DNA of 63,756 bases, the filler included, from Reclinomonas americana ATCC 50394 (Eukaryota): NCBI GenBank assembly GCA_048213135.1. It is 4 parts of 3 records of this genome, joined end to end, with 100 filler letters (N's around TTAATTAATTAA, not from the genome) between each part and the next. Parts side by side here need not be neighbours in the genome. Positions count along the whole stretch, not along the records: positions 1 to 28,911 come from PS015115.1; 3 more parts are not named here. One strand, given 5' to 3'. The notes under the pieces are model-generated. The model saw only the letters and a list, made by a program, of their open reading frames with translations, was not told the DNA's origin and made no database searches. Position numbers and translations under genes: made by a program. This document shows positions 442 through 58,369 of the stretch, one piece after another; the first letter of the stretch is position 1; every line of letters starts with the position of its first letter.

Positions 442-3400
442 GGCTTCAACGCATTCTATCCTCCCGTCGCCGGCGAGGCCACCGCCAAGTTTTACATCAA
501 GGTACGACGCATGCAAGTTTTGGGCGCGTTGCTGACACTTCTGTAGCTGACTGAATCCGCTGGCAGCTCTTCCAAATCGCGCTCTTTGAAAAGAACTGGA
601 CAAAAGAGGCAAAGCCTGTCAAGTACGGTGGCGCCACTTGTGCCCTTGGCAAGGAGCATTCACCGGATGTTGCGTTGATGTGCAGGGTCGCCGATGCAGC
701 GCCCAGCCGCTCACTATATTATATTCTGTGCAGGACATTATTGCCTCGGAGAAGGTGGCCAAGCAATTCGAGTTGCGCATCCCATTATGGTGTGAGGGTG
801 AAAATTGAGTTGCTAACTCGCGGCTGCTGTGACACACAGATTCACCATGCGTTTTTGCTACTGTTCAGTGCCGATTTCCAAGTCAATCTCTTTTATTCTT
901 TCTCCGTCGTCGCTCACAATCTGTTGTGTACCTGCAGTGGGCATCTTTTGTGTAAGTGGAACGGTTGGCATTGCGGGTGAGTGTTATACGTGACGGCTTG
1001 TTGTGTTCTATCGCCTGTCTCACATGTGTACGCTGCAGGATCTCTCACGGGCGCCGTCCTGTTGGCTCCATTTGAGTGCTCAAAGCCAGCGGTATGTGGG
1101 ACTCATTTCCACCCTTTTTCGTCCATTGGCGCACGCAGTCTCATCTCTGTCGATGCTCGCAGCTGACGGTGGGAGGCATGGTCACACCCAAGATGGTGGT
1201 GTTTGGCAAGATTGGAGTTGGACTGCCTAGTTTCGTGACACGAACTCCGTTGTTGTTTGTTGGTGTTTGTTAGCCGCTCACTCTTCATTTCAGTCATCAT
1301 GGGCGGAGTCGGCATTGCGGTGAGTTAGACGCGCCAGTTTGCATCGCCGGTGCACTTGACTCATAGCGTGTCGTTCTGCAACACACACAGGTCGAACTTA
1401 TCTCTGTTGACATTCCGGCCATTGTGCGCCCGCGCATCGACGATCATTATTGCATTCGGGTGCGCAGCGCACCGCCTTGCTCTGTTGTCGTAAATTTTCT
1501 TCTCACCGACACGCAACATTGGCGCAGGTGGACCTCATCATGCGCAAGTGCGTTACCGCGCTTCACCGACATGCCCCCCCCCCCCCCCATTTCATCTCAC
1601 ATTTCCATCTTTTCTCACTTGAACAGCGGTGACGGTCGCGTATTCTTGTGGTGGCGTGCATTTTGGGCGACGAGTGGACCATCGTACGCCATTCTCGGCT
1701 TTGCCGAGGACATGTCATTGGTGTCTGTCGAGCCGTCCAAGATTCACGTGCAGTTGCCGTCGACGCCGTACGCGCTCCCATCTATGCACGCTTTTGTTAC
1801 GGCTGCCTCGGCTCCGCTTCTTGCGCTCTCTTCATCGTCGTCGTCGTCGGCATCCCCCTCCTCTGCCCTCGTTCCGTGGGGCGATGCGAGCGGCCTGGTG
1901 TCGATGCTGGAGAGGGCGCGCGAGTTTGACGAGTTGACGTCGTTTGAGGGCACGGCGCTGGTGCAGGCGCAGTGGGGTGTATTCAAGGCGATTGGTAATG
2001 CGGTGAAGGGGGCGGTGAAGGGTGAGTGGGGGGACAAGGGGGAAGGGTGGAGGGACGGGAAGGGAAGGAGGAGGGGAAAGGGGAGGGGAAGGGAAGGAAG
2101 AGGGGAAAGGGGAGAGGAATGGATTGGAAAAGAGGGAGGAAGGGGGAAGGGGAGGGAAAGGGGATGAGTCGAGACGATGGGGCAGGGAGGGGAGAAGTGA
2201 ATGAGGTGGTAGTAGTGAGAGAGAGAGAGGGAGAGAGAGAGTGGAGAGGGAGGGAGAGGACGGAAAGGGAATCGGATTCAGAAGGAGAGAAGTGGAGANN
2301 NNNNNNNNNNNNNNNNNNNNNNNNNNNNNNNNNNNNNNNNNNNNNNNNNNNNNNNNNNNNNNNNNNNNNNNNNNNNNNNNNNNNNNNNNNNNNNNNNNNN
2401 NNNNNNNNNNNNNNNNNNNNNNNNNNNNNNNNNNNNNNNNNNNNNNNNNNNNNNNNNNNNNNNNNNNNNNNNNNNNNNNNNNNNNNNNNNNNNNNNNNNN
2501 NNNNNNNNNNNNNNNNNNNNNNNNNNNNNNNNNNNNNNNNNNNNNNNNNNNNNNNNNNNNNNNNNNNNNNNNNNNNNNNNNNNNNNNNNNNNNNNNNNNN
2601 NNNNNNNNNNNNNNNNNNNNNNNNNNNNNNNNNNNNNNNNNNNNNNNNNNNNNNNNNNNNNNNNNNNNNNNNNNNNNNNNNNNNNNNNNNNNNNNNNNNN
2701 NNNNNNNNNNNNNNNNNNNNNNNNNNNNNNNNNNNNNNNNNNNNNNNGTGGGGAAAGGAAGAGGAGCACGGGAAGAGTATATTCATTGATAAAGAGAGAA
2801 AGGAAGAAGATTAGAGATTGGAGACAAAGGAGGGAATGTAGAAGAAAGAAACTGATTGCAGGCAAGAATAGCGGAGAGTACGGGGAAATGCGCACGGTGG
2901 CGAGAGGAGGATAATGGAGAGAAGAAGAAAAAAGAAGAAGAAGAAGAAGAAGAGATTGCAGGGAAGGGGACGTTACGCGTGCGTGATTGAAGAGCATATT
3001 AGTGAGACGAGGCGAAAGAGCGGTGATCTATAGTGCACTAAAGAAGACATATTGATGCTGCGAGTGTCTTTTGTACGATGCTCATCGATCCTTGTCATCC
3101 CACAGCTGTGGGAGGCTTCGTGAAGGCCGCGGTGGCGGTCGTTGGTAAGATATTTTCCGCAATCACCTCATTCATCATGAAAGCACTATCAGCAGTTGCG
3201 TGGCCACTGGAGGCAAGGCTTCTCGCACATTCGCAGTGCTGATATTTGCAACACAGGTGTGGAGTGTGCTCGGAAAGATTCTCGATGCCCTGCTCAAGGG
3301 CTGGGGCGAGGTGAGCATAGTGCGGTGGGCTTCGTCGGCTGTGCTTTACCTCATTCCTGTTTGTCGCAGTACACAATGTTCACGTGGAAGGGCATAAAGA

Positions 3401-3533
3401 ACAAGTTTCGTGAGCCAAGTCTCCGGCACGCCACTGCAAGGTGAACATTTTGTTGAAGTGCATGTGGTTGTGTCAATGCAGGTGGAACTTGTTCAAGAAA
3501 GAGGGATTCCCGGGCGACTGCGCCGAGCAGTAA
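442..3533 (+). CDS. C-terminal part of an LLTP/vitellogenin-like secreted protein, paralog 1 (5'-truncated, about 15 exons)
   Basis: Spliced exons read GFNAFYPPVAGEATAKFYIK|LFQIALFEKNWTKEAKPVKYGGATCALGKEHSPD|...|VRPRIDDHYCIR|...DGRVFLWWRAFW...|WNLFKKEGFPGDCAEQ* (TAA 3531-3533). They are collinear exon by exon with 9674-12402. The family label is borrowed from paralog 2. Confidence 0.85.
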
Positions 3534-4034
3534 ACATAATGTTTAATATTTTGTGACGAGCTTTGAGAGACGAGTGTTGTCTGTCGAGATGATGCTGCCG
3601 TGATTGCAGCTGCTCAAGTGCTCGGTCGTATATGGAGTTATTGTCAATCATCATTCCAGCACCAGATAGAGTGATCAATATCTTTTTGTCTTCTCGGTTG
3701 GTGGCGCGAGTGTCGTTTCCTTCGCGTACGGCACAACGGCCGCTGCCATTAGCCCAGTTCCTCGATGGCACCCTCGACCTCTGTGTTGTCTGCTGCCAAG
3801 TTTGTGGTGGCCGTCCGCATCAACGCTGCTGCTACTGTTGCTGCCACCCGTCTTCTGGTACCGGTGGTCACTGCTGACGAAGTCTTCTTCCTGGCCTGGG
3901 CGGCTGTGTGTCCTGAATAGGGCTTTATTCTCAACATCGGCAACACACTTTAAACAGTTTTAGTTGTAGAAGGAAAGCACACGAGACTTGTTGGCGATCA
4001 CTGGTAGATGCTCATTGTTGTGTATGTCCCAGTG

Positions 4035-4194
4035 ACAACAACAAAACACTTCACTCACCACATTCCAATAATGCGACAAATGTCCACAAATCCCTTGCCG
4101 ACGATGACCATTGGCACACCAACAATATACAACACATAGATAAAGCTTCTCCAACAGTCATCTTCCCTTTCAGGAGACAAAGCCAATCAAACGC
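4035..4194 (-). repeat. Dispersed intergenic element, copy 1
   Basis: The reverse complement reads TTTGATTGGCTTTGTCTCCTGAAAGGGAAGATGACTGTT...ATGGTCATCGTCGGCAAGGGATTTGTGGACATTTGTCGCATT, matching 30928-31075 and 12487-12560. Confidence 0.85.
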
Positions 4195-4633
4195 GTGTTG
4201 TGAAGTTCGTGAGTTGCTGTTTAGTATACTTAGGTTTCTGGAAGAGAAGAATTCGCTGCGCATGCGTACGGAGCAGTCACAACCGTAATCCGATTGTATC
4301 TATCCGTTAACGTACGCGTTCTTCTCTTGTTTGCATTCACTGGAAAGAGTGATTGCAAATGAAAATGTTGTGACTGCTGTTCCTCTAGATCTGGATCCGG
4401 AAGAAATATTACTACATAATTATAATGAGATCCGAACAATTGCAAAGAGACTTGCATGACTGGTCTTGGAGAACAATCGCAAATGACGATGTATGTTCTC
4501 TGACACTTCCTCTCTCCGCCTTCTTTCTTTCCACACACCTCCACTTCTCTCCTCACATCCATGAAAGAAAGTGACAATCTGCGCGCGAGCAAGTCGGATA
4601 TCTCTGCCACATTTGTCCCTGCTTGCACACATT

Positions 4634-7600
4634 ATGCGACGGAGAAGGCACTCCCTGTCTCGGTGTTCCTCACGAGCGACACTGATTGTGTGTGCACTGC
4701 TTGTGTTGTTGCCACTGGTGCTGGCACAAGTTGACTTTGCGGGGGAGCCAGAGTTGGAGGAGGTGTGTGTGTGTGTGAGAGAGAGGCAAAGGAGAAAGTG
4801 TTTTGTTTGAGTGTGCGTGTGTGACTTCTTTGTTGGTGTGTGTGGGATGCGTGTACGTGTGTGTGTTGGCGCTCGCATGCTGGCACTCTGACATTGTTGT
4901 ACACATTGACACATTGAAACTTCTCTTGCTTACTCTCACGCTCTCACGCTCTCACACATACACACATCCATGCAGTGATTCGCTCGCTCCCTCCCTCATT
5001 CCCTCACTCCCTCACTCCCTCACGCCTCACGCCCTCACTCACTCACTCATTTCCTTCACTCCCTCACTCCTTGCCTCCCTCACTCCCTCACTCCCTCACT
5101 CCCTCACTCCCTCACTCCCTCACCCCTCACCCCTCACTCCCTCCCCCACACATACACACACACAGAAGCACACTCTCAGCCGTTCACGGTCACTCTCCAT
5201 AATTTCCGTTCCTCCGTTCCTCTTCTCCCTCTCACTCTGCCTCACTCTGCACACTGCCCTCTGTCCTCTCCCTCTCCCTCTCCGTCCCTTTCCCCCTCTT
5301 CCCTCCGCCTGTCCCTCTCACCACCTTCTCCTTTACCCTCTCCCTCCCTCTCTCCCTTCCTCACCACTACAGCCCTGGCAACGAACCAGCAACTACCCCG
5401 TGCGAACCTCCCGCGCACTGTTGTGCCAACCCGGCTTCCGCTGTGTGGTTTGTCGGCCGCCCTCTCCCTTTTCTCTCTTCTCTCCTCCCTCTCTTCTCAA
5501 CCCCGTTTCCCCTCCCCACAGTACCGCGGTCAGCTGACCACCAGCGACCGCCCCGTAAATCACTCGGAGAAAAAGGAGAAGGCTGGCGATCCGTGCCTGC
5601 AGCAGCGTGTCGTCAACGCGGTGTGGACTGTCACGCATGAGCCGACTGGGGTGCGTGCTCTCTCGTGTGTTATTCCACTACCCTTGCGCCTCTCTCACTT
5701 CTTCCTCCCCAGTCCCGCTCTCACGTGCCTCCCGACGCCGACCTGTTCGCCATTCGCTTCATCCAAGCCTGGCAATTCGACAAGTGCAAGCTGTCGCCCG
5801 ATGTCAGCAAGCTGGTGACGGCGCAGTTGACGCAGTTCACGACGCACGTCATCCAGACGCATGTGAGTGTCGCCGACTGAATGGGGGATTTTCACCATCT
5901 CTCTCACCCCTCTCTCCCACGGCAGAGCGGCAAAGTCCTGCAAGTGTACGAACACATTCGCGAGTCGAGCAATGCCGCCACCATCAAGCGTTTGTTCATG
6001 AAGGCTCTCAACTCCAAAGTGCCCAAGGCAGACTCCACCGCGCCGCCGCCCGCTGGAGAGGCGCTGGTGTTCTTCGATGAGCACACGCACTCGGGACCGA
6101 TCATGGGAACGTTGCGTGACACGCGCACTTTCAATGGCGGTTCGTTTTGCCGACTCACCCGTGTCGCAGGTCCACCATCTTGCATACAACTCCCAACTCC
6201 ATTCTCTTTGAGGAGGCCATGGTTGCCGTGGAGAGCACTGCCACGGTGCAGTTGTCGCCGAGCGAGTGGGCATCGCGGCGACGTGCGAATCTCGTGGGCT
6301 TCATTCCGATCAAGCAGCGTCCGCGACTGCCCGACGTGAAGACCAAGATGCCCAACACGACATTCAGCACGAAAGTGCAGGCCACGTCGCAGGTCTTTGG
6401 TGTGGTGTTGACGATGGATGTGATGGGCTTCTCACTTTTTGTTGGTGTTAGGCTCGTGCCAAGACCCTGGTGAAGAACGGCATCACCACCGCCTCGCAGC
6501 ACAATGTCGGGGTGGAGTTCGGCGACTCGAATGCGGAAGGCACCGTGGGCAAGAAGCACGTGCCGCCGGTGAAGAAGGGCTCCCCGGCGCACAGTTTCGT
6601 CGCTGCTTATAAAAGAAGGTTGGCGCCTGCGACTGATGAATGTTCGCAGGTGGCAAGGAGGACAAGAATGTGGCGGATGGCATGACTGGTGATCAGGTTT
6701 GTGCGAGACTGTGACAAGAGGGGAGAGGTGGACGAGAATGAGTGAGAAGCACGGAGATTGATGATATTCTGAGTGAGCTGTGTGATGAGTTTCTGCTCCT
6801 CTTGCACTGTTCTTCACCGGAGAAAGCAAACATCGACATGCTGAGATGACGAGCCGATCAGAGAAGGGTTGGGAGAAGACCATGGTGCGAGATGATTCGC
6901 TCCTGCTTTTTGCTCTGGAGAATGAGCGAGACATCTCCTCCCTCCTGTTCTCTTCTCTCTCCCTTCCTCTCATCCCCTTTCCCTTTTCCCCCATTTTTAC
7001 CATTGCTTTCTTCTCCCTTTCCCTCACCTCCCCTTCCCTCACCTACCCCTTCCCTCACCTCGCCTTCCCCCTTCTCCCCCATCCACAGCCCAGCGGCATG
7101 TCATCCAAAAACGGCACCGTGGTCAAAGTCGCGCTCGTCACCAGCGTCCGTGTCCAACCTCGCACCGCGCCACCTACCGACTCCGCCGCAGCGGGCATGA
7201 TGTTTACAGAGGTGCCGACGGAGGAGCCACTGGCCTTTGTGAAGCACCCGGAGCACTATCGTGTGGATGTTGCGTTTGTTGAATCTCTGTCTTGTCTTCT
7301 GGCGCCGACACTCACCACTTGAATGACACAGAATTCTTTCTACGGCACCTTTTTCACTCCGCGCCAATCGCTGCAAATGAGCTTTCCCACGCACACTTTC
7401 GACACGGGCGAGAAGCTGATTCGCGGGTGAGTGATGTGTGTGCTTTTCCGGAAGACCCTAAGAGTGACTAAATTCTCCATTTTCTTCTGCAGTGCCTGCT
7501 CCGGTGCCGTGGAGCCAATGCTGCTGCAGCGAGAGCTCTCCAAGAGCACCATCAACGAGGAATTTGTGCATCACATGATGGCAGTCGTGCAGCAAGTGAT

Positions 7601-10600
7601 GGCCGATTGCCAGCCTTCTGCGTTGCAAGTGGTGCGGCGCGCAATCGATGCCATCCTTTCTCATTGCGTTTGCTGACGCCTCTCTGTCTGTCTGTCTCTC
7701 TGTCTCTCTGTCTCCCTCTCCCTCTCCCCCCTCTCTCTGTCTCTCTCTCAATCTCTCTCTCCCTCCCCCTCTCTTCCTTTTCGCAGATCCTGGCCTCTCT
7801 CAACACGTACAACATGCCAGCAACACAGCACTTCTTGCTGTCGCTGGCCGAATCGCATTCCGTGGACCATCCGACGCGCAACAGTGCACTCATTGGATTG
7901 GTGCACCCGCGAAACGGATACACTGACGGTCAGCTTGATTTGCACACTCACGACACGGTGACGCGACTTCACCAGTTGTGGAACGAGGACAGCGATGGGC
8001 AGGTGGGCGAAGACGGAAGGGACACGAGTCAACTCGCATGTCTTGCTCACTCTTTTGTTGTACCGCGCAGGCACTCCTGGTCCTCGCTGGTGTGCTCGGA
8101 TCGCTGAATGTTGTGCGCCCGGTCGAGGTGGAGGATCCGTACGAGCACATTGTGGCGGCCGTGGAGGAGGAGCTGCTGGAGGTGTTCCAAGCGGATGCTG
8201 ACCGGAGGAGTTTGAACCATGCGACCATGCTTCTACACACGCTCGGCAATGCGCAGTACTCGCGCTCACTACGTCATTTGCGGCATTTCGCCACTCGCCA
8301 CCGTGACCTGTCGGTGGCGCGCCTGGCGGTGGAGACCATGGCCGGCTTCGAGTCAGACGAGGGTACGCAGACGCTGGTGGAGGTGATGCGTGACGTGTAT
8401 GCCAAGCCGCAAGTTCGCTTGGCAGCAGCGGCAGCCCTGTCCAGCAAGTTTCGTTCACTGTTGCGACTTCAGTTAATGTTGGTTGGCTGCTTACCGACCT
8501 TGATTTGCGTGCAGGACTCTCTCGCCACGGCAATCGTCGGTCCTCAATGCATTTGTCGCTGCCAGCGTCTCTACCAGTGCGCGAAGCACGGAAGACAACG
8601 GGGGAGAAGGTACCAGTGCTGACGACACCAGTGATCAGGAGCGTCAGCAGCAAGAGGAGCGCAAGAATCGACCGCAGGAGCAAGAAGAGCAACAAAAGGA
8701 GGAGCAGCCGCAGAAGGAGGAGCCGCCAAAGGAGGAGCCGCAAAAGGAGGAGCCGAAAAAAGAAGAACAGCAGCAAGAGGACGACGACCCGGGCAAGGTC
8801 ACGCATGAGAGGACGTGGGAAAAGGTGCGTGTCGAGGAGATCGCCGGTGGCTGTGAGATCGTCGACTCACTTGCATTTTTTACAGATCTATGAGCAAACT
8901 CCAGGCTTTGGCAATGTTGCGTGTCGGTGGAGGGCGTAGTGATGTCGAAGAGAAAGGGAGACGGGCCGTCAGAAGCGCCTCTCATCTGACAGGGACAGTG
9001 GTTGACAGAAGGGACTCAATCTGAAAGAGATTGTGGTTGACAGAAAAGTCTCAACTATTTCCTCTTTCTCGAAGCGAATTGCTTTGCTGCAAGTATCAGT
9101 GCTCACACAACTCGCTCTCGCAGAGTTTTGTCGGTGGACGATTCGAGGCTGGTGCCGTTGCGTCATTACTTCTCTTTGCCAACATAAAGTTTGCCGCTAT
9201 CCTAATCTCCGCGTTCACATGTCGCAGATATTGCAACTCAAGGCCTAGTTCTGTCGCCGCAATGTTGCTTTTGGTGCTTTTCTCTCGATCCACTCACGTT
9301 TGCTTTGTTGTTCACAGCGAGAAGATGACTCTCGAAGCAAGTGAGTCTGTCTGCATTGTGGTTCACTCGCTCCTCTTCTTGCACTGACATTTGGTGACCA
9401 TTTTTGTGTTGCAGAGGGCGATGCTTATGCAAGGTGCGTGCAGATGCTTCTGTTGTAGGGAATTCATGTGCTTATGTGCACTAATTCGCTGTTCTGCTGG
9501 CAGATGCCCCGTGCACGTCTGGGTGCGTTGCATAGTGGTCATCGCGGTGTGTTGTTTATCACTCCTCACTCTGAATTTCCTGCAGAAACTCAAATTCAAG
9601 ATCTTCGAAGTGGTGAGTGCTCGTGACCGTGCACGTATGTTGGTGGTGTTCATGCTGCTAACTCGACTGAGCAGGGCTTCAATGCGCACTATCCTCCCGT
9701 GCACGGCGAGGCGCAGGCCAAGTTTTTCATCAAGGTTGGCGTGTGTGAGAAGGGGGAAAGACTTGGAGAGAGAGAGAGAGAGGAGACGGAGAGAAAGAAA
9801 GAAAGAGAGAGTGCGTGAGAGAGAGAGAGAGCACACTAAGGAACAGGAGATTTCCCTTGTCGAAGAATAAGAGGGCCTTCGAAAAAGACAGAATACGGAA
9901 CTATATGATTTCGTTCCGCCTCTCTCCCATTTGTTGTCGTACTATCCTCCTGCTTCCCGCGTCCTCACGCTCTTTTCCTAGTTGTTCGGCCTGTCACTCT
10001 TTGACAAGGAGTGGACGAAGGAGGCCAAGCCAATCAAATTCGGTGGTGCCACGTGCGCGCTGGGCAAGGAATACTCTCCCAATGTTGCGTTGTTGTATGC
10101 AGGAAGATGTGAGGTATGTGCTCACCTTTCCTTGTACAGGACGTCATTGCCTCGGAGAAGATCGCCAAGCAATTCGAGTTGCGTTCGAACAGGCGTATGT
10201 GACGGCTGTGGTTGTGCATCTCACAGATTCGTGTGTCACAGGTACACCATGCGCTTCTGCTACCGTTGTGTCAACATTTTCCTGTCTTCTGGTCGCACGG
10301 TGCTGCCACTGACGGTGATTGTGTGTTTTCGCAGTGGGCATCTTTTGTGTCAGCGGCACTGTCGGGTTTGCCGGTGAGTGGCGAATAGGGAGGGCATAGG
10401 AAGAGAGGGAAGTGACAGGGAAAGTTGGGAGGCGAGGAAATGCGTGTAAAGCGAGATGGTGATTGACGTAGAAGATTTTTGGGTGACGAGAGGAAGGGAG
10501 GAGGATGAGTAGAATGGGATGCAGGAAGATGAAATGAGGGGAGGCAGGGTGAGAAAACGAGAAGTGGAGGGACGCAGGTTCACGCGCAGAGCAAGAATGA

Positions 10601-12402
10601 GAGGAAGAAGAAGAGAGAAATAGATGCAGAAGAGGAAAGAGGAAGGGAGAAGAATGAGGAGGAGAGGAAAGGAAGAAGAGAATGAAGAGAAGGGATGTAG
10701 AAGACGATATGTTGGAAGGGGGAGCATGAAGAGAAGGTGATGTGAGAAGAGGAAATGAGGGGAGGCAGAGAGAAAACGAGAAGTGGAAAGAAGGAGGAAG
10801 AAGCACAGAGCAAGAGTGAGAGAGAAAGAAGAGGAGGAGAGGAAGGGAGGAGGAAGACGAGGAGAAGGGGGTGTATGAGGATGAGGAGAGACCAACAATG
10901 CACAGCCGCTGTCGTCGTCACTTGTTCAGCAGTAGAGTGTGTGATGCCCTTGCACTGATTTCCATTGTGTGAACTCGCAGGTTCGCTGACTGGCTCCGTG
11001 TTGCTGGCGCCCTTTGAGTGCTCCAAGCCAGCGGTAAGTAAATTCAGTTCCGTCCATGTCTTCCTTTGCTCGTCTCATATTGCCATGTTGTGCAGATGAC
11101 GGTGGGTGGCATGGTCTCGCCAAAGATTGTCGTGTTTGCCAAGATTGGAGTGGGTCTGCCAAGTTGCGTCGTGTCGCCTTCCCGCTCATCCGTTTTGTGT
11201 CCCCACTGCTTAAACAACCTCTGCACTCTCATGTGAACCCACAGTCATCATGGGTGGCGTCGGCATTGCGGTGCGTCGTTGTGAATCGAGTGATCGCTAA
11301 CTGCCACTCTCTGACCAGTGTGTATGTGCAGGTCGAAATCGTGTCAATTGACATTCCGCTGGTGGTGCGACCGCGCATCGACGATCACTACTGCATTCGG
11401 GTGTGTTGCCGCCGCTGCTGCATTTGTCACTCTGCAACTCTGTACTGACTCGCCTCTCTCTCGCTCAGGCCGATCTCATTATGCGCAAGTGCGTATTCCC
11501 CTTGCATCTCGTCTCTCCCTCCCACTCGCTAACAGTGTCGTGTCAATAATGGCAGTGGTGACGGCAAGGTGTTCCTGTGGTGGCGTGCATTCTGGGCGCG
11601 CGGAGGACCGTCGTATGCCATTCTCGGCTTTGCCGAAGACATGATGGTGTTTATCGGCGACGCGGGACCACTCGGCACCTCCAAGATCAGCCAACTCGCG
11701 CTGCCGTCGCCGCGCCCGCCCCTCCATGCGTTCCTGGCCTCGGCGATTGGCCCAGCCATGTCGTCGTCATCGACGGCAATCGCTGTGGTGACACCAAAAG
11801 TCGGTGGCGTGGTGGCGCAGCTCGAGTCGGCGCGGGACGCCGATGCTGTGGTCCCGTTTGAGGACTCGACGCTCCAGCTGGCCGAGTGGGGCTTCTTCAG
11901 ACGACTGGTCAGGTCGATTGGAAACTTCTTCAAGAAGGTGGCAAATGCCATTGTGAAGGCCGTGAAGGGTGAGTCAGAGTGGGAAAGGAGGGGGGAGAAG
12001 GCACGGCAGGAGGGTGTTCGCTGACGCGCTGCGTACGTAATGCAGCCGTCGTCAACTTCGTCGTGAAGATCGCTGTTGCCATTGGCAAGGCGTTTATCGC
12101 GCTGGGCAAGCTGATTGTCAAGGCCCTTATCGCTGTTGCGTGGGCGCGGAACGGCACTGGTGGAAGTGAGGCGCTTCTCGCTCACTCGTTTCTCGCAGGT
12201 GTGGAAGGTACTCGGCGACATCCTCGATGCGCTGCTCAAGGGCTGGGGCGAGTATACGATGTTCAAGTGGGCCGGTGTGAAGAATAAGTTGCGTGCGCAC
12301 GCAATGGCAGTGACGGGAGGTGGTGCACTCATGTGACTGGTGCGGCGCAGGTGGAACTTGTTTAAGAAGGAGGCGTTCCCGGGTGACTGTGCAGAGGTGT
12401 GA
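4634..12402 (+). CDS. Large secreted protein with a vitellogenin/large-lipid-transfer-protein-like helical domain, paralog 2 (about 35 exons)
   Basis: Signal peptide (LIVCALLVLLPLVLA-Q) from ATG 4634. The region 8071-8447 (LLHTLGNAQYSRSLRHLRHF...ARLAVETMAGF...LVEVMRDVYAKPQVRLAAAAAL) resembles the LLTP alpha-helical repeats. An acidic Q/E/K linker follows, then a beta-rich C-terminal region ending FPGDCAEV* (TGA 12400-12402). The coding call is solid; the family call is by motif recognition only. Confidence 0.75.
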
Positions 12403-12486
12403 GAGAGTGTAATGAAGTAATCGAATTGCAAGCAAAAGGAGAAGGGAGGGAGACGAGGGAGAGGAAGGGATAGGTGGGAGAAACAA

Positions 12487-12560
12487 GCGTTTGATTGGCT
12501 TTGCCTCCTGAAAGGGAAGATGACTGTCGCAGAACAGTAATTGTATGTTTTGTAGTCATG
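12487..12560 (+). repeat. Dispersed intergenic element, copy 2 (partial)
   Basis: GCGTTTGATTGGCTTTGCCTCCTGAAAGGGAAGATGACTGT is nearly identical to the reverse complement of 4155-4194. Confidence 0.85.
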
Positions 12561-12755
12561 CAATGTGATCGTTTGTTTTCAAGGGCCCGACGTCGCAGCA
12601 GTTCTCCCCGCGTCGATTGCGACGTTGAGTGAAGTCGCGATCTACTCTTCTCTTGCTTGTTGTATGACTTTACATCTGCAGTGCTCTCTTGCCAAACATC
12701 GACGTCGCCGGCCGATGTCCTATCGAAAACTGTGCGAAAACTTCTCACATCAACA

Positions 12756-15402
12756 ATGCCCGAGCACACCATCACCACCTCGCCCTCCTCCGTCAACGGC
12801 ACACCAACCGCCTCGCCGACCTCGGCCACGCCCGCCGCCGCCGCCGACAAGAAGAACGCGCGCGCACCGCGGTTGACACTGTCGGCACTGACGGCCTTTG
12901 TCACCACTCTCTCGCTGGTGGCCTACATTAGCATCCGCGCATTCGCCTCGCGCTTCCCCGACCTGGCCAACCTGCGATGGGATCAAGCGCCGATCCTGCG
13001 CACGCCCNNNNNNNNNNNNNNNNNNNNNNNNNNNNNNNNNNNNNNNNNNNNNNNNNNNNNNNNNNNNNNNNNNNNNNNNNNNNCCTACTCTCTCTTCTTT
13101 CTTCTCCCTCTTCCTCCGTCTTCCTCTGATCGCCTCTCGCTCGCTCGTTGCGCTTGGTGCGTGAGTTTTTGTAATTGGAAATGCCCACCATGTCCACGTG
13201 TTTTTCGTTCGCCCACTGCTGCAGGTGGTGGCACGCGCGTCGTATGCGTCAGGACCCGTCGCCTACACGTGGCACGCTCAACTTGCGCGCGCTTTTGCCG
13301 GCTTGGAACCTGTTCCTGACGGTGCTGTCGGCGTACATGTTTGTCGGCATGAGCGTTCCGAACACGACGTTTTTGCTGGAGAGTGCCGAGGGAAGCCTGG
13401 CGCGTGGTCTGTACGAGTCGCTGTGTGATCCGCAGGCGCGTCACTGGGAGTACGATGGCATGGCCAACTGGGCGCTGCTGGCGTTTGCGCTCAGCAAGTT
13501 TGCCGAGCTTGGCGATACTGTGTTTCATGGTGTGCGCATAGATTTGCATTATTATGTACTCCATATATTTGCTATTGGTGAGTATTTTGTTTCTCATTGG
13601 TGTGTGTTTTTTGCTGGCGTAGTGGCGCACAAGAAGGAGATCTCGGTGCTGCATGGATGGCATCACACCAGCGTGCTGCTGTTCACGTGGTGAGTGGATT
13701 GGGAGGGAAATGGGGGAAATGGAGAGGGTGAGGGGTAGAGAGCCAAGGAGTGGGGAAGGGGGAGAGGAGTGGCGGGGAAGGGATGAAGAGACAGGGTAGG
13801 GAGAGGGTGAGGGGAAGTGGGAAGATTGCGGGAAGGACCAAGGAGGAGGGTGAGGGTGAAAGGTGGAAAGAAGAGATAGCTACAGGGCAGGAAGGAGGGT
13901 TGACGAGAAGGAGAGACAGGACCAATGAGGTGCAGAGGCTGAGAGGTGAAGATTAGCAGAGACAGAGCCAAGGAGGCAGATAGGGTGAGGGGAAGGGATG
14001 AAGAAAAGCAGAGATAAGGCCAAGGAGGAGGGAAGAGTGAGGGTTGAAGTGAAGCAGAGATAAGGCCAAGAAGGAGGAGAGAGTGAGGGTGAAATCTGAA
14101 GAAACAGGATGCAGGCTTGCGGTTGCGGTGGAAAGAAACAACTCTGAGAGTGATAAGAGATGAGAAAAGGCGAGGGAGGAACTCAGTGGTATCAACTCCA
14201 CCTTTGATAATCGTCACAGACTCCATCTCTTTCGCCGTGACTGACTGCTCTCGCGCAGGTACTCGTGCTACGTGTACTTCTCCCCGGGCTGGCTGTTTGC
14301 CGCCCTGAACAGCTTTGTGCACCTGTTCATGTTGCGTGAGAAAGCAGGTCGTCTCCCTCTCTCCCCGCCCACTCTCACTTGTGCGCGTGTGCAGGTACGG
14401 CTTGTGGTTCTTCATGAGCATCGGCTATACCGCCTCGTTCGCCAAGAAGATCACCACGCTGCAAATCACGCAAATGATCATTGGCCTGCTGTGGACGGCG
14501 GCGTTGCGTACCACCGCCAATAGTTTCCTTCTGTCGCCTTTTTCTCCTTTCCCTATCTTTTCTTTTCCCTCCTCTTCAATCGCCATCTCATTCCCTCTCT
14601 CCTTCGTTAGTGTTGACTTGTTTGTGCAAGTGCGCTGTTGTGTACCGTTCTCTTCTTCTTTTCTCCCTCCTCTCTTCTCCTCTTTTTCTCATCCGTTCTC
14701 TCTCCTCGTGGGTGCTGACTTGTTTCCAAGTGTGCTGTGATGCAACCTTCTCTTCTTTTCTCCCTCGTCTCTTCGTCTCTCTTTTTCTGATCCCTTCTCT
14801 CTTTTCCTCGTGGGTGCTGATTTGTTTCTGCAAGTGGTTGTGATGCAACCTTCTCTTCTTTTCTCCCTCCTCCCTCTCCTCTTCTCTCTTTTTCTCATCC
14901 CTTCTCTCTCCTCGTGGGCGCTGACTTGTTTCTGCAGCATTTCTTCCTTCTTCATCCTCTTTCCCTTCTGTCTTGTCCTCTCTGTCTCATAATTCGCTCT
15001 CCTTCTCGTTGGCGTTGACTTGTTCTGCAAGTGGACTGTGAAGCAACTTATCCATTCTTTTCTCTCCGTTCTCTCTCCTTGCGTTGGTGTTGACTTGAAA
15101 CTTTTCTTCTTTTTCTCTCCCTTCTCTCCTTTTCTCGTCTTTTTCGTTGTTTGCATTGCAGGTGGGCGGTGATGCACCTCATCAACCCAAGCGCGTGCCC
15201 CGTGCACGGACCATCGTGGCCCATCATGGCGGCCTCGGCCATTGTCTACGGGTGAGTGCTCGGTTGTCGCACCACCCTCCCCGCTCGCTCGTGCCCTCAC
15301 TTTTTTTCTTCGGTCGTCGCCCACAGCTCATACCTCATCCTGTTCCTTAACTTTTACCGCCAGCGCTACAACGAGTCCGGCAGCAAGACCAAGGCGGAGT
15401 AA
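12756..15402 (+). CDS. GNS1/SUR4 (ELO) family fatty-acid elongase
   Basis: Motifs WNLFLTVLS, SKFAELGDTVF, the histidine box LHGWHH, NSFVHLFMY, ITTLQITQM and SYLILFLNFY, plus a C-terminal KxKxx ER-retrieval signal (KTKAE*). A small N gap lies at 13008-13083. Confidence 0.93.
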
Positions 15403-15586
15403 CGCGGCGTGTCGCTCGCAGTTTTGGGGGCGAGAGAAACCAGCAACACAACATCGTCTCTCGCTCTTCATCCTTTCGATTTATCTCGCATTGTCCCTTC
15501 TTCCCTCCTCTTCTCAACTAGAAATCGGTCGACACACAAATTCTCCTTTCCTGTTCGCCTCGCACACAATCACACAAGTGTGTCTC

Positions 15587-15696
15587 CTACATAAAATCGT
15601 CGTCGTCGATGCCAGCGGCACCCGCCTCAGCTGCTCCACCAAAGTCCTTGAGGTCGTCGACGGCGTCGGCGGCCAGGTTCGGTCGCTTGACGGCGG
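15587..15696 (-). CDS. Terminal exon, probably translation initiation factor eIF3 subunit J (Hcr1)
   Basis: An acceptor is followed by AVKRPNLAADAVDDLKDFGGAAEAGAAGIDDDDFM*. A C-terminal DDDFM is characteristic of eIF3j/Hcr1. Upstream exons were not found and may lie in the gap 16933-17550. Confidence 0.45.
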
Positions 15697-16105
15697 CTGT
15701 GAAGAGAGGGGAAAGGGGGCAAGGGGGAAGAGAGATGAGGCAAGGGAGGGAGAAGGGAAATGAAGAGAGCGACAGGTGGGAATGCTGAAGGAATAGAGCG
15801 GAAGAGGGGAGAGCGACAGGTGAGAATACAGAAGGAATAAGAGCAACGGTGTGAGGATGAGTAGGCAGTGCAAGGGTTGAGATAGAGACGAAGGGTGCTG
15901 AAGAAGACTGTGTGTGTGATAGAGAGAGAGAGAGACAAAGGGGAAGGGGAAACGAGGACGATGGCTTGTAGTACCCACTGCTACATAACCAGAGACACGT
16001 GCGTGATTCACGAACTACTGTGCAATCGTGGAATAACTGCACGATCGCCTGAGGCTAACTGAGTTGAACCATGTCCTCTGCATTCTCGCTCTCTCGGCAA
16101 GTGAA

Positions 16106-19645: not shown

Positions 19646-22600
19646 GCCCCTCTCACCGCCCCCGCACCACGCCCTCCCGCCTCCCCGCACACCGCACGCC
19701 CACCGCCTTTGCACCACCACCTCAACTGGAGGACAAGACCTCGGCGGCCTACTACGCCGGCGCCGTGACCACCGACGACGATGGTGAGGAAGGGGAGGAG
19801 GAGGAGGACGACGTGTTTCTGTTCGCCGAGGCCGAAGTCAAGGAGCTGGAGCGGAGGCGAGCGATCGCACAGAATGACGACGACGATGATGTGGATGACG
19901 ACGACGATGATGATGATGATGATGACGACGAAGATGAGGCGATGGCAGAGTTGATTCGTGCCGGCATGTCGCGACGCAGTCACATGAATGCGGCGTTGCG
20001 AAAGGGTGTGCTGGAGGCACCGGTGGCGATGCCGACTGCGGCGCAGGTGGACGTGTTTGCTGGCGAGATGCGCACACCGCCGGCGAATCGTCGAGGACGT
20101 CGAAAGTTCAACGCAGCCTCGCCCGCAGGTGTGGCGACGACGACCACCACCACCACCACGACAACTGTCGCCGCTGCAATGTCGGCTGCAGGTGTGCCCT
20201 CCTCACGCCGGCGGCATCCCTTCAATGTGGGTGCTGGCGGTGCGGCGGCAGGTGCCATTCGTGTGGGTCGTGGCGGCGGCGGCGAGGCATCGTCGTCCGA
20301 TGCCGACGATGAGGAGAGCTCTCGACGGGAGTCGCTGGGCACGATTATCAGCGACAGTGAGGAGGGTGACGGCGGCAGCCGTGGCTCGGTGATTGACGAC
20401 GAGCTGAGTTTGAACATTCCGGCGTCGGCCGAGGGCACCACGACCGACGACGACGTCGAAGAAGAAGACGACGACGATGATGACGAGAGCGACGGATTCG
20501 GCTACGGTGGTGGTGGTGGTGTTGCTGTTGGCGGCGGTGTTGTCAAGGGCAGTGGTCTCCGTGGTCGCCGCGATTATTTCACCCTGGATAGGCGGTTGCG
20601 CGATTTTGTGGGCCGACCGCGTGAGCCGGAAGACGCTGACGGTGGCGTTGGTGGTGGTGGTGGTGGTGGTGGGAACGACGAGGATGCCGTCAGCCACGAA
20701 GACGACAACTCGCAGCTGGAGGAGGAGGACGAGGTGGGCGAGGAGGTGGAGGACGACAAGGACGACAGCCGTGGCGGCAAGCAACCGCGCGGCCCGAAGT
20801 GGCAGCACGACGCGTCGCCGCGTGCGGTCAGCTCGACACGCGCACAGCAGGCACGTAGGACCCGTCGGATGCAGTCACACAGTCGGCGCAACTCTGCCGT
20901 GTTTGCCGATCGATTGCAGCAGGTGGGCGAGTCGATTCATGAGGAGGTGAGTTGGGGAAAAGGGGAGGGGGATAGGGGAAGGAGGAGGGAGACGGAAATG
21001 AGGAAGGAGGGAGAGGAGCCCAAGCATAATGANNNNNNNNNNNNNNNNNNNNAACGACACGACCCCGCCGACTCGTCGCTGCTGGCGGGTGTGGAGCATC
21101 CGGAGGCGTTTGAGCGGTCACCCTCGCAGTCGTCCATGTTCCCGCCTTCGGTGGCCGCCGCCTCCAATTCGCCCGACTCGGAGCGCGCACTGTCTGCGTT
21201 CCGTCGCCAACTCTCCGAGACCTCGTCGCATGGCGGCGCCGCGTGGGTGCTGGAAGAGGCGCTGATTCCGCCCATGAAGTCCACCGACACGGTCAGGGTG
21301 CTCAAGCAGAACGGCTACAAGACGGTGAACGAGTACGTGTTGCTGCACCGACTCGGTCGCGGCGCCTACGGCAAGGTGTCGCTGGCCCTCAACAGTGTGA
21401 CTCGCCAGAAATTCGTTGCGTCTTTTTTCTACACCACCACCGCCCCTCGCTCTTGCCAAGTCTCTTACGTTTGTATGCAGGCCATCAAAGTGTGCTCAAA
21501 GCACCTGCTGCGCACGGCCAAGTTCGGCCACAGCACCGAAGAGGCAATGGATGCGCTGCTGCAAGAGATGACGATTATGAAGAATCTGCAGCATCCGAAT
21601 GTGGTCAAGCTGTTCGAGACAATCAACTCTCCCACGCACGACAAGCTGTTCCTGGGTGAGTGTGTGCGCCCCCGATGTGGAGAGTGTAGTATAATCTCCA
21701 TCGGCTCATCGTACACACAGTGATGGAGTTTGTGGAGCGCGGACCGGTGATGCGACTCAAGCCGTCCCTGGACTCGGACGATCCGCCGATTCACGAGGAC
21801 CTGGCGCGCAAGTACATGATTGATCTGATCGAGGGCGTCTCCTTCCTGCACGAGCACGGCATTGTGCATCGCGACATCAAGCCCGACAATCTGCTCATTT
21901 CGGACCAGAATGTGCTGAAGATCTCCGATTTCGGTGTCAGTGTGTCGTATGGGTTGTCCGATGTGACGAGCGTGCAGGCGGGGACCTCGGCGTTTTTGTC
22001 CCCGGAGGCGTTGCACAGTTGAGTGCGGAAGGGGGAAGGGGGGGCAAGGGGAAGAGATTGAGAAAGGGGGAGGATAGGGGAAGGGAAGGATCTCTCAGAA
22101 GAGTGTGGTGAGAGAGAGAGAGGGAGAGCATTACTCGAATGGAGATCTAGAAATGCTTGATCTGTATTTTTGACGTGCAGAAGCACGGAGGCATGTGTGT
22201 GTGAGAGAGAGATGGGGGAAGGAGAAGATGAGTGTTTGGGTTTGACGACGGGTTAGTTACTCCTTCTCTCAGAAGGAAACAGAGGTATGAGAGAGAATAC
22301 GAAACACAGGAATGGAGAAATCCTGTGCATTCGACTTCTACAGGAGATGAAGAAAATACTTGTTCTATCTTCCATCGCGCAGGTGAGAACAGGAGGCGTA
22401 TACTGAGAGAGAGTGAGAGAGAGGGAAGGAGAGGATGAGCTCGGGATTGACGATTGCAACTTTCTCTCGAAAGAAGACGAAGAATGCTCTGTCTTTCTTT
22501 TTCACATCAAGCAGGAGAGGAAGAACAGAAGCCGTGTATGTTTGTGTGTGAGAGAGAAGGAGAGACGATACTTTCTTTCGTGTGTGTACCTGTGGTTCAT

Positions 22601-25195: not shown

Positions 25196-25676
25196 AGTCG
25201 TCCGCCGTGCCCCACCGCCGCGCCGAGCAGTACGCCACAATATGCTCCGGATCGAGGTGCTTCGACACCAATTCAATGTCGGCGTCCCACACGGCACGCA
25301 CCACCACTTGCTCGTAATGCTCCGGTCGCAACTCCGCCGGCACTCGCGTGCCACAAAATCCCACAAACCACTGTTCTTGTTGCTGTTCGTCCTTGGCAGA
25401 CAAGTGTCGCGCTGCGGCCTCGGCGCCTCCAGGAAAGATCACACGTGCAGCATCGCCGGCGATCGCACTCTCCGTGTCGGCGGCATAGGTGGCATCGCCG
25501 TGCAGCACGCGATCGCGCGTGAGTTGCCAGTGCGCCACATCCGTATGTTCGGAGGTGCCGGATTGGAGGAGGGCTGTCGCGCGGACGTAATCGAGAATGG
25601 CTTGCAGGAAGAGCACGTCGTTGGCCACGGCGTCGGGTGCGAGAGGGTACGAAGAGGAAGAGGACGAGACATCCAT
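25196..25676 (-). CDS. N-terminal part of an intronless hypothetical protein of about 236 aa, in a mis-oriented block
   Basis: The ORF MDVSSS...WFVGFCGTR...VWDADIELV...IVAYCSARRWGTADD ends in a T at the gap edge, which completes TGG with bases 26239-26240. Confidence 0.8.
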
Positions 25677-25749
25677 GGCGCGCGCTTGCGTGAGTTGTTG
25701 GAGAGAGGACGAGGACAACTATTGCAAGCTTCAATAAAGAGTAAAACTG

Positions 25750-26093
25750 TCACAGCAGCAACGAGCCCATTGACTCGCTGCCGCTGGTCTGGAAAAGAGA
25801 GGGTGGTGGTGGGGGGAGACCGCGTCGAGAGGACGGGAAACCGCGTCCGCTCTTGCTGGAACGTCGCGAAGTGCTGCTGCCGCTGCTCGAGCCCGACGGA
25901 CTCGGTGCGTCGCCCACCGAGGATGGTGCGGCCGGTGGTGGGGCCATGGCGAGAGGCAGAGGCGGAGGCATGAGAATGGCGTCGGCAGCATTGGTGTTGG
26001 CCGATGGCAGACTGCCGAGGGAGGTGTTGTTGCTGAGAATGGCGGTGCAGCTGCGATAGCGGGTCGGGTGCGGAGGATGCATGGCGGCGAGGG
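25750..26093 (-). CDS. Pro/Ser-rich C-terminal tail of the CAMKK kinase, in a mis-oriented block
   Basis: Joining 24581 to the reverse complement from 26093 gives GAC G|CC CTC GCC GCC ATG CAT (HHDALAAMHPPH...), which stays open to the stop at 25750. Confidence 0.8.
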
Positions 26094-26238
26094 NNNNNNN
26101 NNNNNNNNNNNNNNNNNNNNNNNNNNNNNNNNNNNNNNNNNNNNNNNNNNNNNNNNNNNNNNNNNNNNNNNNNNNNNNNNNNNNNNNNNNNNNNNNNNNN
26201 NNNNNNNNNNNNNNNNNNNNNNNNNNNNNNNNNNNNNN

Positions 26239-26468
26239 GGTCTAACTTGGTGGTGCTGCGTGGCGGGCAGGAGAGCATCGAGACGTGGGCGCGCACGCCG
26301 GCACACATGGATGTGGTCACACAGTGGGCGCCGCAGTTCTATCACTCGGTGCGCCTGCATCGGCTGTGTGGCGACGCCGCAGATGCCAGTGCGTTGCATG
26401 TGCGTCGCACGTTGCAGCTCGAGTATCGGGCCGGCGAGATTGCGCACCGACAGGTGCATCTGTGGTGA
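26239..26468 (+). CDS. C-terminal part of the same intronless hypothetical protein
   Basis: (W)SNLVVLRGGQESIETWARTPAHMDVVTQWAPQFYHSVRLHRL...VHLW*. Confidence 0.8.
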
Positions 26469-26545
26469 GACGCGCCACCACCACCACCACCGCCACACAA
26501 CAAAGTGTACATGTAATAATCTTGCGTGCACCACACAAATGCCCT

Positions 26546-29011: not shown

Positions 29012-30658
29012 TGCATTCAATCGATGTTGAGCCTTCACTCTGTTCGTCGATTGCTCACTTTGTTTGTAGAGAGCGGTCAACCCGAGTCACTGGATCGGCG
29101 ATTCGTCACACAGCAGCTGCATGTGTCGGAGACGCAGCGTTCGGGCTCTGTGTTGCGTGCTCACTCTGGTGTGTTTAAGTTGGCGAGCTTCCCAGTCTTA
29201 CATCGCGTGTATCAGGCCGCTGCTGTATGGTATTGTCAACATGCTGAAGGAGGCGCGTGGTGGTGGCCAGCGAGGTGGCGCCAGTGGGGCGAGGAGAGCG
29301 CCGGGGTCGATTGGCGGGCATGGTGAGAGGAGGGGCGAGGGGGAGGGAGGATGGGCGAGGAGAGCAAGAGAGAGAAAAACACACACACACATACATGCAG
29401 CGCGGGAGGGAGCGAGGGGATGGGGAGAGAAAGATGAAGAGAGAGAAAGGAAGCTCGAGAGGAACGAGCTGTGGAATATCTGAAGACCGCAGTGATCGGA
29501 GATAGAGTGCGAGAGATGAAGACTACTTTGCATGAGCAGCACTTGCCATGCCTCTCTCTAACCGTTCTTCTCTCATGCACACCTGTACGCCCGAAACAGA
29601 ATACTTGCTCGCAGTCAAGGCTGTCGTTCTCTCCCTTTTTCGACCTCTCTCCATCTCCAGGTCACACGCACGCGGCGCGGGAGGGAACGAGGGGAGGGCG
29701 ATGTTGGGCGACGAGAGAAAGATGAAGAGAGAGAGAGAGAAAGGAAGCTCGAGAGGGAACAAACTGTGGAATATCTGAGGTGTACTTGCAGTGATCAGAG
29801 ATAGATGATGAGAGAAAGACTGCTTNNNNNNNNNNNNNNNNNNNNNNNNNNNNNNNNNNNNNNNNNNNNNNNNNNNNNNNNNNNNNNNNNNNNNNNNNNN
29901 NNNNNNNNNNNNNNNNNNNNNNNNNNNNNNNNNNNNNNNNNNNNNNNNNNNNNNNNNNNNNNNNNNNNNNNNNNNNNNNNNNNNNNNNNNNNNNNNNNNN
30001 NNNNNNNNNNNNNNNNNNNNNNNNNNNNNNNNNNNNNNNNNNNNNNNNNNNNNNNNNNNNNNNNNNNNNNNNNNNNNNNNNNNNNNNNNNNNNNTGCATG
30101 AGCAGCACTTGCCATGCCTCTCTGTAATCGTTCCTCCCTCACACGCATACCTGTACGCCCGAAACAGAACGCTTGCTCGCAGTCAAGGCTGTCGTTCTCC
30201 CTTTTCGATCTCTCTCGGCGTCCTGCTCACTAACGAGAGCGCAATGTTCTGAAACATGGTGCACGTTCTCTCTCTCTCACACACACACACACTCTGTTCT
30301 CTTCGTCCCTCAATCCATCTTGTTCTCTCTCCTTCTCACCAACGAGAATACATTCTACGAAAAGAACACAAGGAGTGATCACTCTGTCTCCCTCATTCTC
30401 CTATCTCTCTCTCTCTCTCTCTCGCTCTCTCTCTCGCTCTCTCTCTGCCTTTTCTCACATAGTCCCTCTGAACCCACAGACGATGGCAGCGAGTCACGAG
30501 GCGCGAGCTACTCCACCGGCCCCAGCGCCGTCTCCTCCGTGACACCTCCGGCTGGTGCTGCGGCCGGAGGAGACGGTGGCGGCTCCAAGTTCCACGTGAT
30601 TCGCGGAGCGCAAGTGTCGCACGGTTTGTACTTCTCGACTCGGCAGCAACGTGCTTGA
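29012..30658 (+). CDS. 3' fragment of a hypothetical spliced gene
   Basis: The exon WRASQSYIACIRPLLYGIVNMLKEARG...H G| splices in frame to the exon at about 30480 (DDGSESRG...HGLYFSTRQQRA*). No recognisable domain. Confidence 0.4.
29370..30210. repeat. Tandem duplications of about 300 bp inside a probable intron
   Basis: GAAAGGAAGCTCGAG...CTGTGGAATATCTGA occurs at about 29445 and 29740. TGCATGAGCAGCACTTGCCATGCCTCTC...CCTGTACGCCCGAAACAGAA occurs at about 29529 and 30095. Confidence 0.8.
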
Positions 30659-30927
30659 ATCTCACTCCGCGCGACAGAGGGCTCACTGGTGTCGGGATCG
30701 ACTGCCAACACCGATCACCCGTACATGGGCCTGCACGCTCGACCACTGGAGTTTCAAAAATGAAACAAAGGGCTCGAGCTCACTACTGTCACAGCTGCAA
30801 CAATTCATTCACCGACAAGCATGATGACCAAGTCCATTCTCAGCATCACTAGATTATGGGGACCTCTGGAGCATTTTAACATTTATTTAAAATGTCCTTA
30901 TAGTGTACATGCTAGCATGCGCACGGA

Positions 30928-31075
30928 TTGCTTGGCTTCGCCTCCTGAACGGGAAGATGACTGTTTAGAGAAGATTATAGTTTGTGCCATGGTCATTGTC
31001 GGCAAGGGATATGTGGACATTTGTCGCATTGCAATGTGGTGAATGGAGTGTTTTGTTGTGGCAACAACTGGTCTT
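30928..31075 (+). repeat. Dispersed intergenic element, copy 3
   Basis: TTGGCTTCGCCTCCTGAACGGGAAGATGACTGTT...ATGGTCATTGTCGGCAAGGGATATGTGGACATTTGTCGCATT...AATGTGGTGA...GTGTTTTGTTGT matches the reverse complement of 4035-4194. Confidence 0.85.
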
Positions 31076-32053: not shown

Positions 32054-32142
<89 letters not shown>

Positions 32143-34769: not shown

Positions 34770-34828
<59 letters not shown>

Positions 34829-57904: not shown

Positions 57905-57937
<33 letters not shown>

Positions 57938-58263: not shown

Positions 58264-58314
58264 NNNNNNNNNNNNNNNNNNNNACGTACGTCGTCGTTCG
58301 TCGTCGTGTCGTGT

Positions 58315-58369
<55 letters not shown>

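Follow-up and report, generated by a model that had tools for sequence, protein, structure and literature searches.

A candidate two-position donor motif in predicted introns of Reclinomonas americana, with a shifted form that is not found after an exonic G

INTRODUCTION

What is known of how the spliceosomal cut is placed relative to U1, U6, and U5 pairing comes from a few dozen unusual sites examined in human cells. Human U1 can pair with noncanonical donors in a +1 shifted register or with a bulge at +2/+3 (54 bulge sites), and all validated sites of this kind make up ∼1.5% of sites (PMC4856993, PMC11162779); both papers attribute the +1 shifted register to Roca and Krainer (2009). U6 C42/A41 pair with +5G/+6U of the intron, and a tandem donor in STAT3 uses a noncanonical U6 register (PMC11162779). 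Two main types of donor site, AG//GUNNN and NN//GURAG, have been linked with loop 1 of U5 and the ACAGA box of U6 (PMC11732430). Among microbial eukaryotes, Entamoeba and Mastigamoeba balamuthi have atypical donors, and their U1 arms have changed to match; the change reported in Mastigamoeba is a G at position 5 (10.1101/2022.06.08.495308). Here we describe the donors of predicted introns in a 63,756-nucleotide (nt) stretch of Reclinomonas americana ATCC 50394 (assembly GCA_048213135.1), hereafter the window, which is gapped eukaryotic DNA with short introns; about a third of these introns appear to carry their donor consensus one base downstream of its usual place.

RESULTS AND DISCUSSION

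A shifted donor form that avoids an exonic G

All splice junctions described here are predicted from DNA. Introns were called by a parser without a donor model and then curated manually; the resulting 13 multi-exon models represent 12 genes, contain 113 introns, and are open in every frame. Donors 20947 and 34772, which run into N gaps, were kept out of this catalogue, as were the initial NHL exon and ambiguous fragments near 15540-15700, 25196-26470, 29074-30852, 40004-42000, and 61000-63756. Counting the last exon base as −1 and the first intron base as +1, we call a donor shifted if it has +3T and +6G and lacks +5G (pattern GT-T-N-H-G). By this rule 37 of the 113 donors (∼33%) are shifted, 72 have +5G (ordinary), and 4 are neither.

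The two forms are separated by the exon's last base. Shifted donors follow A (16), T (13), or C (8), and never G, while 68 of the 76 nonshifted donors follow G; put the other way, 37 of 45 donors after non-G are shifted versus 0 of 68 after G (Fisher P = 2.5 × 10⁻²²). This split is not circular, because the 45 donors with +3T themselves divide by exon end: all 8 that follow G have +5G, and all 37 that follow another base have +6G and none +5G. The absence of shifted donors after G is also not passive, given that 11.4 would be expected from codon composition (P of observing none, 9 × 10⁻⁷) and ∼21 from a sequence-entropy model, which is rough and based on small samples. Exclusion of −1G from the shifted class is thus active.

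The shifted motif is rigid. Beyond the defining letters it favors +4G (30/37), +5C (30/37), and +7T (31/37), with A scarce at +5 (4/37), and its entropy over +3 to +7 is 2.6 bits, versus 6.2 bits for ordinary donors after G. By comparison, the position corresponding to +5 in ordinary donors, +4, is C in 19 of 72 (P = 5 × 10⁻⁸). The eight ordinary donors that follow a non-G base form their own uniform set, all with +3G, +5G, and +6T.

In other respects, shifted and ordinary introns look alike. Acceptors and intron lengths are similar; all 37 shifted introns end in YAG and leave open frames when removed. A loose CTVAY-type branch motif is found in 28 of 37 shifted and 59 of 72 ordinary introns, at a median distance to the acceptor of 19 and 20 nt, respectively. 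By their GT...YAG ends, open frames, and common branch motif, we take the shifted introns to be U2-type (major) introns whose excision from RNA is predicted.

U12-type introns have the donor RTATCCTT and the branch point TCCTTAAC. That identity was considered and rejected: the shifted donor matrix is unlike it, and a U12-like branch point is present in 0 of 37. For an origin of the class by intron sliding the signal was too weak: a G opens the following exon after 17 of 37 shifted and 19 of 72 ordinary introns (P = 0.053).

We give almost no credence to a homopolymer error in sequencing as the source of the extra T, or to misannotation of the donors. Deleting one T from a shifted donor does make it look ordinary, gaps and low-quality ends occur in the assembly, and the junctions are DNA-based predictions. 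Against this, the 22,049 exonic bases of intact frames contain 62 non-G-GTGCG words without an extra T, which makes a homopolymer artifact unlikely; the extra T is also present in both copies of eight homologous pairs. A donor-blind reparse argues likewise: of its 98 donors, 21 were shifted (recovering 21 of the 37 curated ones), all after non-G, compared with 62 shifted-type words among 2,422 background GTs that are not donors. Moreover, 14 of the 37 shifted donors have no other in-frame GT within −45 to +30. At the level of DNA, then, the shifted donor class is real and unusual.

Junction tests place the cut at GT

Cutting one base later with the same acceptor would break the frame, so only sliding both ends of the intron competes with a GT-AG cut. 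In the 17 shifted introns whose next exon starts with G, a slid cut leaves the message unchanged; the other 20 yielded three informative tests, all of which favor GT. The original prediction had proposed that the homologous donors 863 and 10265 fix the cut, and they do: GT-AG cutting gives Leu in both copies, whereas cutting one base later gives Trp and Arg. The remaining junctions that bear on the cut, or that align with homologues, are as follows.

9248 to 9254, plus strand: shifted donor a/GTTCTGT; a GT cut gives Tyr, a slid cut an in-frame TAG
44932 to 44938, minus strand: shifted donor t/GTTGCGC in a histidine kinase gene; a GT-AG cut gives Phe after NAxK (5 of 5 homologues), a slid cut Cys
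14331 to 14337, plus strand: shifted donor, elongase gene; the junction lines up in register with homologues at their VHxxMY motif (11 of 13 homologues covered it)
21415 to 21421, plus strand: shifted donor in a CaMKK-like kinase gene; junction F/AIK aligns, covered by 13 of 16 homologues

Among the matches listed, identity was at most 35 to 55% for the kinase exon and 50 to 63% for the histidine kinase exon; the elongase exon had no match in one search and 21 distant ones in another. The junction at 22018 falls in a variable loop. An in-frame +5G alternative exists for 6 of the 37 shifted donors. It is disfavored by paralog alignment at 11163, 12288, and 32953 and by the elongase homologues at 14331, and it may be the one used at 9157 and 37756.

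Two shifted donors lie in tandem at 8448 and 8460 (plus strand), 12 nt apart and in the same frame, and either may serve.

Paralogous donors and the exon end

Homologous introns come from two large paralogous genes, a GT31-like gene pair, and the modules of an NHL-repeat gene. The two large genes are:

442 to 3533, plus strand: gene A1, the 3′ part of a gene for a large lipid-transfer-like protein; 15 exons seen, 14 introns (6 shifted), open frame of 373 amino acids (aa)
5373 to 12402, plus strand: gene A2, the paralog of gene A1, with 34 exons and an open frame of 1,182 aa; 14 of its 33 introns are shifted

Protein alignment paired 22 introns: 13 between A1 and A2, 4 in the GT31-like genes (the fifth GT31 intron does not align and was left out), and 5 between NHL modules. 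Amino acid identity is 67.6% over 364 aa for A1/A2, 61.4% for the GT31-like pair, and 47.6 and 54.6% for the NHL modules; across the A1/A2, GT31-like, and NHL alignments, fourfold-degenerate sites are identical at 58/127, 88/174, 13/67, and 34/106. The paired donors discussed here are listed with their A1 or first-module copy first.

669 to 675, plus strand: shifted t/GTTGCGT, paired with 10084 t/GTTGCGT (A1/A2 alignment)
772 to 778, plus strand: shifted a/GTTGCGC, paired with 10178 a/GTTGCGT (A1/A2 alignment)
863 to 869, plus strand: shifted t/GTTCAGT, paired with 10265 c/GTTGTGT (Leu at the GT-AG cut in both)
1230 to 1236, plus strand: shifted a/GTTTCGT, paired with 11163 a/GTTGCGT (A1/A2 alignment)
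1548 to 1554, plus strand: ordinary donor after non-G, a/GTGCGTT, paired with 11489 a/GTGCGTA, also ordinary (A1/A2 alignment)
3195 to 3201, plus strand: shifted a/GTTGCGT, paired with 12135 t/GTTGCGT (A1/A2 alignment)
3311 to 3369, plus strand: ordinary intron of A1, absent from A2 in the alignment
3405 to 3411, plus strand: shifted a/GTTTCGT, paired with 12288 a/GTTGCGT (A1/A2 alignment)
32953 to 32959, plus strand: shifted c/GTTGAGT, paired with 35522 a/GTTGCGC (NHL modules)
49826 to 49832, minus strand: shifted a/GTTGCGT, GT31-like copy 1, paired with 52847
52841 to 52847, minus strand: shifted t/GTTGCGA, GT31-like copy 2, paired with 49832

The ten donors on which the original prediction was built all read as it gave them (eight on the plus strand, 49832 and 52847 on the minus strand), and they are homologous: their introns lie at aligned codons in the same phase, and spliced models of both paralog pairs are open. 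Its statement that intron bodies have diverged is largely borne out, since identity over +8 to +30 is 0.27 to 0.29 in homologous pairs, close to the 0.25 to 0.26 of unrelated introns; some body similarity (z above 2) is retained in 4 of 15 short pairs, the 7 long pairs having been skipped. That homologous shifted donors keep their form with different letters applies to the other pairs it quoted, but not to 3195/12135, which are identical over +1 to +9; the 669/10084 pair is likewise identical over +1 to +9 in both copies.

Single-copy introns, present in only one paralog or module, occur at 31665, 31854, 32820, 35710, 35822, and 3311 and reflect gain or loss since duplication.

Against these near-random bodies, positions +3 and +6 stand out. 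In the 10 pairs chosen solely by a non-G exon end, each is identical in 9, compared with 0.278 for +8 to +30 (P = 7 × 10⁻⁵ at the body rate, 0.005 to 0.012 at the rate of fourfold sites). Because +3 and +6 are kept while intron bodies are near random, +3T/+6G are under selection, as originally predicted; the finding that would have spoken against this, +3 and +6 no more conserved than their neighbors, is not what the pairs show. The companion idea that −1, +4, and +5 simply vary is too broad, for +4G, +5C, and +7T are constrained as well (30, 30, and 31 of 37). The eight shifted pairs match at +4, +5, and +7 in 5, 6, and 5 cases, about as often as unrelated shifted introns do (rates of 0.64, 0.64, and 0.72).

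Donor class agrees in 21 of the 22 pairs: 8 are shifted in both copies, 13 are nonshifted in both, and 1 is mixed, against 9.1 mixed pairs expected if −1 is ignored (P = 1.4 × 10⁻⁴). This agreement upholds the predicted conservation of class between paralogs only in part, as it gives little that the exon end does not already account for. The G or non-G status of −1 is the same in all 22 pairs; within the 10 non-G pairs, 1 is mixed versus 3.2 expected from unpaired non-G donors (20 of 25 shifted), which is not significant (P = 0.12), and the mixed pair switched class with the same −1. Paralogs thus mostly share their class because coding sequence keeps the exon end. At 3195/12135, −1 is a fourfold wobble site, and it has changed between A and T, not to G.

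We regard as very unlikely a scheme in which class is inherited with the intron, the exon end is irrelevant, and switching requires an indel through a nonfunctional state, although such inheritance could partly coexist with control by the exon end. The 21 concordant pairs, set against 9.1 discordant ones expected when −1 is ignored, agree with it, as does 1548/11489, ordinary after A in both copies; once −1 is taken into account the excess concordance fades to P = 0.12, and one intron has switched with its exon end unchanged. Most of the conservation of class between paralogs is what one would expect if donors are selected and exon ends conserved; by itself, it is a modest addition to what is known.

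A class switch in the NHL-repeat gene

The single mixed pair lies in the NHL-repeat gene.

32230 to 32236, plus strand: ordinary t/GTGAGTG, NHL module 1; exon end gat, MYVAD/LGNNA
34519 to 34525, plus strand: shifted t/GTTGCGT, NHL module 2; exon end gat, LYITD/QGNHA, same phase as 32230

These donors, which lie outside the range given by the original prediction, differ in class with an unchanged exon end, a counterexample to conservation of class, and 32230 has no in-frame shifted alternative. The same position of the NHL repeat is also shifted at 32953 and 35522, so that 3 of 4 are shifted and the ordinary donor at 32230 probably derives from a shifted one.

Readers of the two forms

We estimated U1 pairing energies with the human U1 arm (PMC4856993) in an unmodified-RNA model that omits pseudouridine and protein help; the host arm may differ. 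For 34 of 37 shifted sites the +1 shifted register was the best of three, raising Watson-Crick pairs with standard U1 from 3.1 to 5.0. It seems quite improbable, nonetheless, that the shifted donors are read by a standard U1 through the +1 shifted register or a +2/+3 bulge, the way a few human sites are. In its favor are that gain in pairs and the fact that both registers are established in human cells (PMC4856993). On the other side, the shifted sites do not pair stably with the standard arm even in the shifted register under this model: their mean is −0.4 kcal/mol versus −8.6 for ordinary donors after G, and 3 of 37 reach −3. The favored +5C also mismatches the arm, and A is depleted at +5. 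Since standard U1 pairs poorly with shifted sites in every register (about −0.5 kcal/mol), an altered U1 arm together with shifted U6 pairing is more likely. The original proposal that the recognition register moves while the cleavage site stays is accordingly sustained in part: the motif is offset and the cut is at GT, but a human-type U1 is too weak in any register, and the reader is probably altered too.

In the model, a changed arm suffices. A U1 with G5 alone pairs with shifted sites at −3.8 kcal/mol and loses nothing on ordinary ones; with G5 and C6 the shifted sites reach −5.4 and the two ordinary groups −9.2 and −6.4 kcal/mol. U6-type pairs at +6/+7 are both available in 31 of 37 shifted donors, and either of them in the ordinary register in 0 of 37. 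When −1 is set to G in the shifted sites, binding of standard U1 in the ordinary register strengthens to −3.9 kcal/mol; one might speculate that this stronger modeled binding is the reason for the exclusion of G.

A separate, dedicated reader (a second U1 or U6 paralog, or a protein) that defines a distinct class in the manner of the minor spliceosome is an unlikely alternative. The rigidity of the motif (2.6 versus 6.2 bits) fits such a reader, and a modeled, fully complementary arm binds 36 of 37 shifted sites below −3 kcal/mol and ordinary G donors weakly. Yet branch point and acceptor are alike in the two classes, no shifted intron (0/37) has a U12-like branch point, one homologous intron uses either form (32230/34519), and a single modeled U1 suffices.

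The interpretation to which we incline, somewhat beyond even odds, is that these are GT-AG introns of the major spliceosome with one donor motif, G-x-T-x-x-G-T, used in two positions and gated by the exon end. The motif would give an ordinary donor when it starts at the last exon base (G/GT.NG.) and a shifted one when it starts at the first intron base (H/GTTGCGT). As judged from the predicted junctions, which form is used depends on the last base of the exon, cleavage remains at GT, and purifying selection holds each donor. Class would not be fixed by descent: an indel of one base together with point changes could convert either form. We infer that a U1 with G5, and perhaps also C6, in its 5′ arm reads the shifted form, pairing one base downstream or bulged; that U6 then pairs with +6G/+7U in place of +5G/+6U and loops out one base; and that U5/Prp8 would keep the cut at GU. 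A −1G may lock U1 in the ordinary register, where U6 would lack its +5G, which would account for the exclusion of G. We hold only tentatively, as short of an even chance, the stronger claim of a two-register donor code in which the last exon base is the switch, about a third of introns pair, one base further downstream than usual, with both a changed U1 and the ACAGA box of U6 while cleavage stays at GU, and introns move between codes in evolution.

Several points count against the two-position interpretation. Every junction is predicted, and about eight of the retained introns are of low confidence (5420, 6393, 8448 or its tandem 8460, 13161, 28893, 37756, 50830, and 53903). The class switch is seen in a single pair, whose duplication is old (47.6% aa identity), and the 32230/34519 difference could stem from parallel intron gain at one site. 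Both copies of 1548/11489 have retained the rare ordinary form after A, and with 1 discordant pair against 3.2 expected some inheritance of class is possible. The U1 variants were picked to fit the motif, so their good fit is a prediction and not a test. Finally, the roles given to U1 and U6 are inferred, an Rfam search of the window having found no snRNA gene (0 matches).

Other features of the window

Intron 2022 of gene A1 runs across an N gap. Gene A2 has weak Pfam matches to Vitellogenin_N and HEAT_2, below the curated cutoffs, and its exon at 11557-11967 has no Pfam match; runs of micro-exons of 19 to 27 nt each occupy 9228-9612 and 11245-11488 (plus strand). At the C termini of the A proteins (11850-12400 and 1950-3530, plus strand), a low-complexity linker leads into a long helical stretch that is basic and apparently amphipathic. 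A search of metagenomes for orthologues of gene A gave 565 pattern matches, 0 of them confirmed. A pattern scan of metagenomes with a guessed U1 arm returned at least 120 loci (74 distinct), of which the 20 picked by a stem/Sm heuristic gave 0 Rfam matches; this result speaks neither for nor against a changed U1. A noncoding element of ∼70 to 150 bp is present in three copies, at 4030-4205 (plus), 30920-31070 (minus), and 12475-12600 (minus); its core of ∼40 bp is strongly conserved, and two copies lie just beyond the ends of A1 and A2.

The NHL-repeat gene at 31303-38479 (plus strand) encodes a surface-type protein in which two modules of six repeats each stand in tandem, with Ser/Thr-rich, beta-rich domains and PAN domains after them. 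Elsewhere we noted a probable GC-AG intron (g/GCAAGTC) at 42681-43098 (plus), an intron of a Ras-like gene apparently ending in AAG at 55887-55960 (minus), and, at 56456-58263 (minus), a partial gene for a histidine-rich, possibly metal-binding protein, two exons of which have no Pfam match. N-flanked TTAATTAATTAA linkers at 28956, 40592, and 61882 probably mark joins between separate contigs. Runs of ACGT type occur at piece ends (1-90, 31919-32060, and 58284-58320) and resemble pyrosequencing flow noise.

Comparison with known systems

In the literature searched, with most subscription papers outside its scope, we found no account of a donor class like this one from a microbial eukaryote. 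Conservation between paralogs is expected of any functional splice site; more can be learned from the switch within one gene and from the active exclusion of −1G. If a third of introns genome-wide carry the +5G/+6U signal at +6/+7, and never after an exonic G, the lineage would offer thousands of natural cases in which the U6-register question could be tested. Gene finders applied to this lineage also have reason to take the class into account.

Like Mastigamoeba, whose U1 has G5, the shifted donors here are best helped by G5 among the modeled changes; unlike in Entamoeba and Mastigamoeba, which have single consensuses in the ordinary register, two registers coexist here, with the U1 change being a modeled one (10.1101/2022.06.08.495308). 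As in the U5/U6 two-class split, G on the exon side anticorrelates with information on the intron side, and the eight ordinary non-G donors with +3G, +5G, and +6T fit that pattern. The known classes overlap in one register, whereas here the non-G class is displaced by one base and never follows G (PMC11732430). The STAT3 donor likewise places the GU for U6 C42/A41 away from its usual position, although there it lies one base upstream (+4/+5) in one gene, and here, in roughly one intron in three, it would lie one base downstream (+6/+7), the U6 pairing being putative (PMC11162779). Closest are the human +1 shifted and +2/+3 bulge sites, in which the intronic consensus also lies one base downstream and the cut is kept at GU. 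The shifted donors share this displaced consensus with unchanged cleavage (+6G in 37/37, +7T in 31/37, +5G in 0/37, and the cut tests above) and differ from the human atypical sites in number (37 of 113 introns versus ∼1.5% of sites), in excluding −1G, and in preferring +5C, with which a standard U1 arm does not pair (PMC4856993, PMC11162779).

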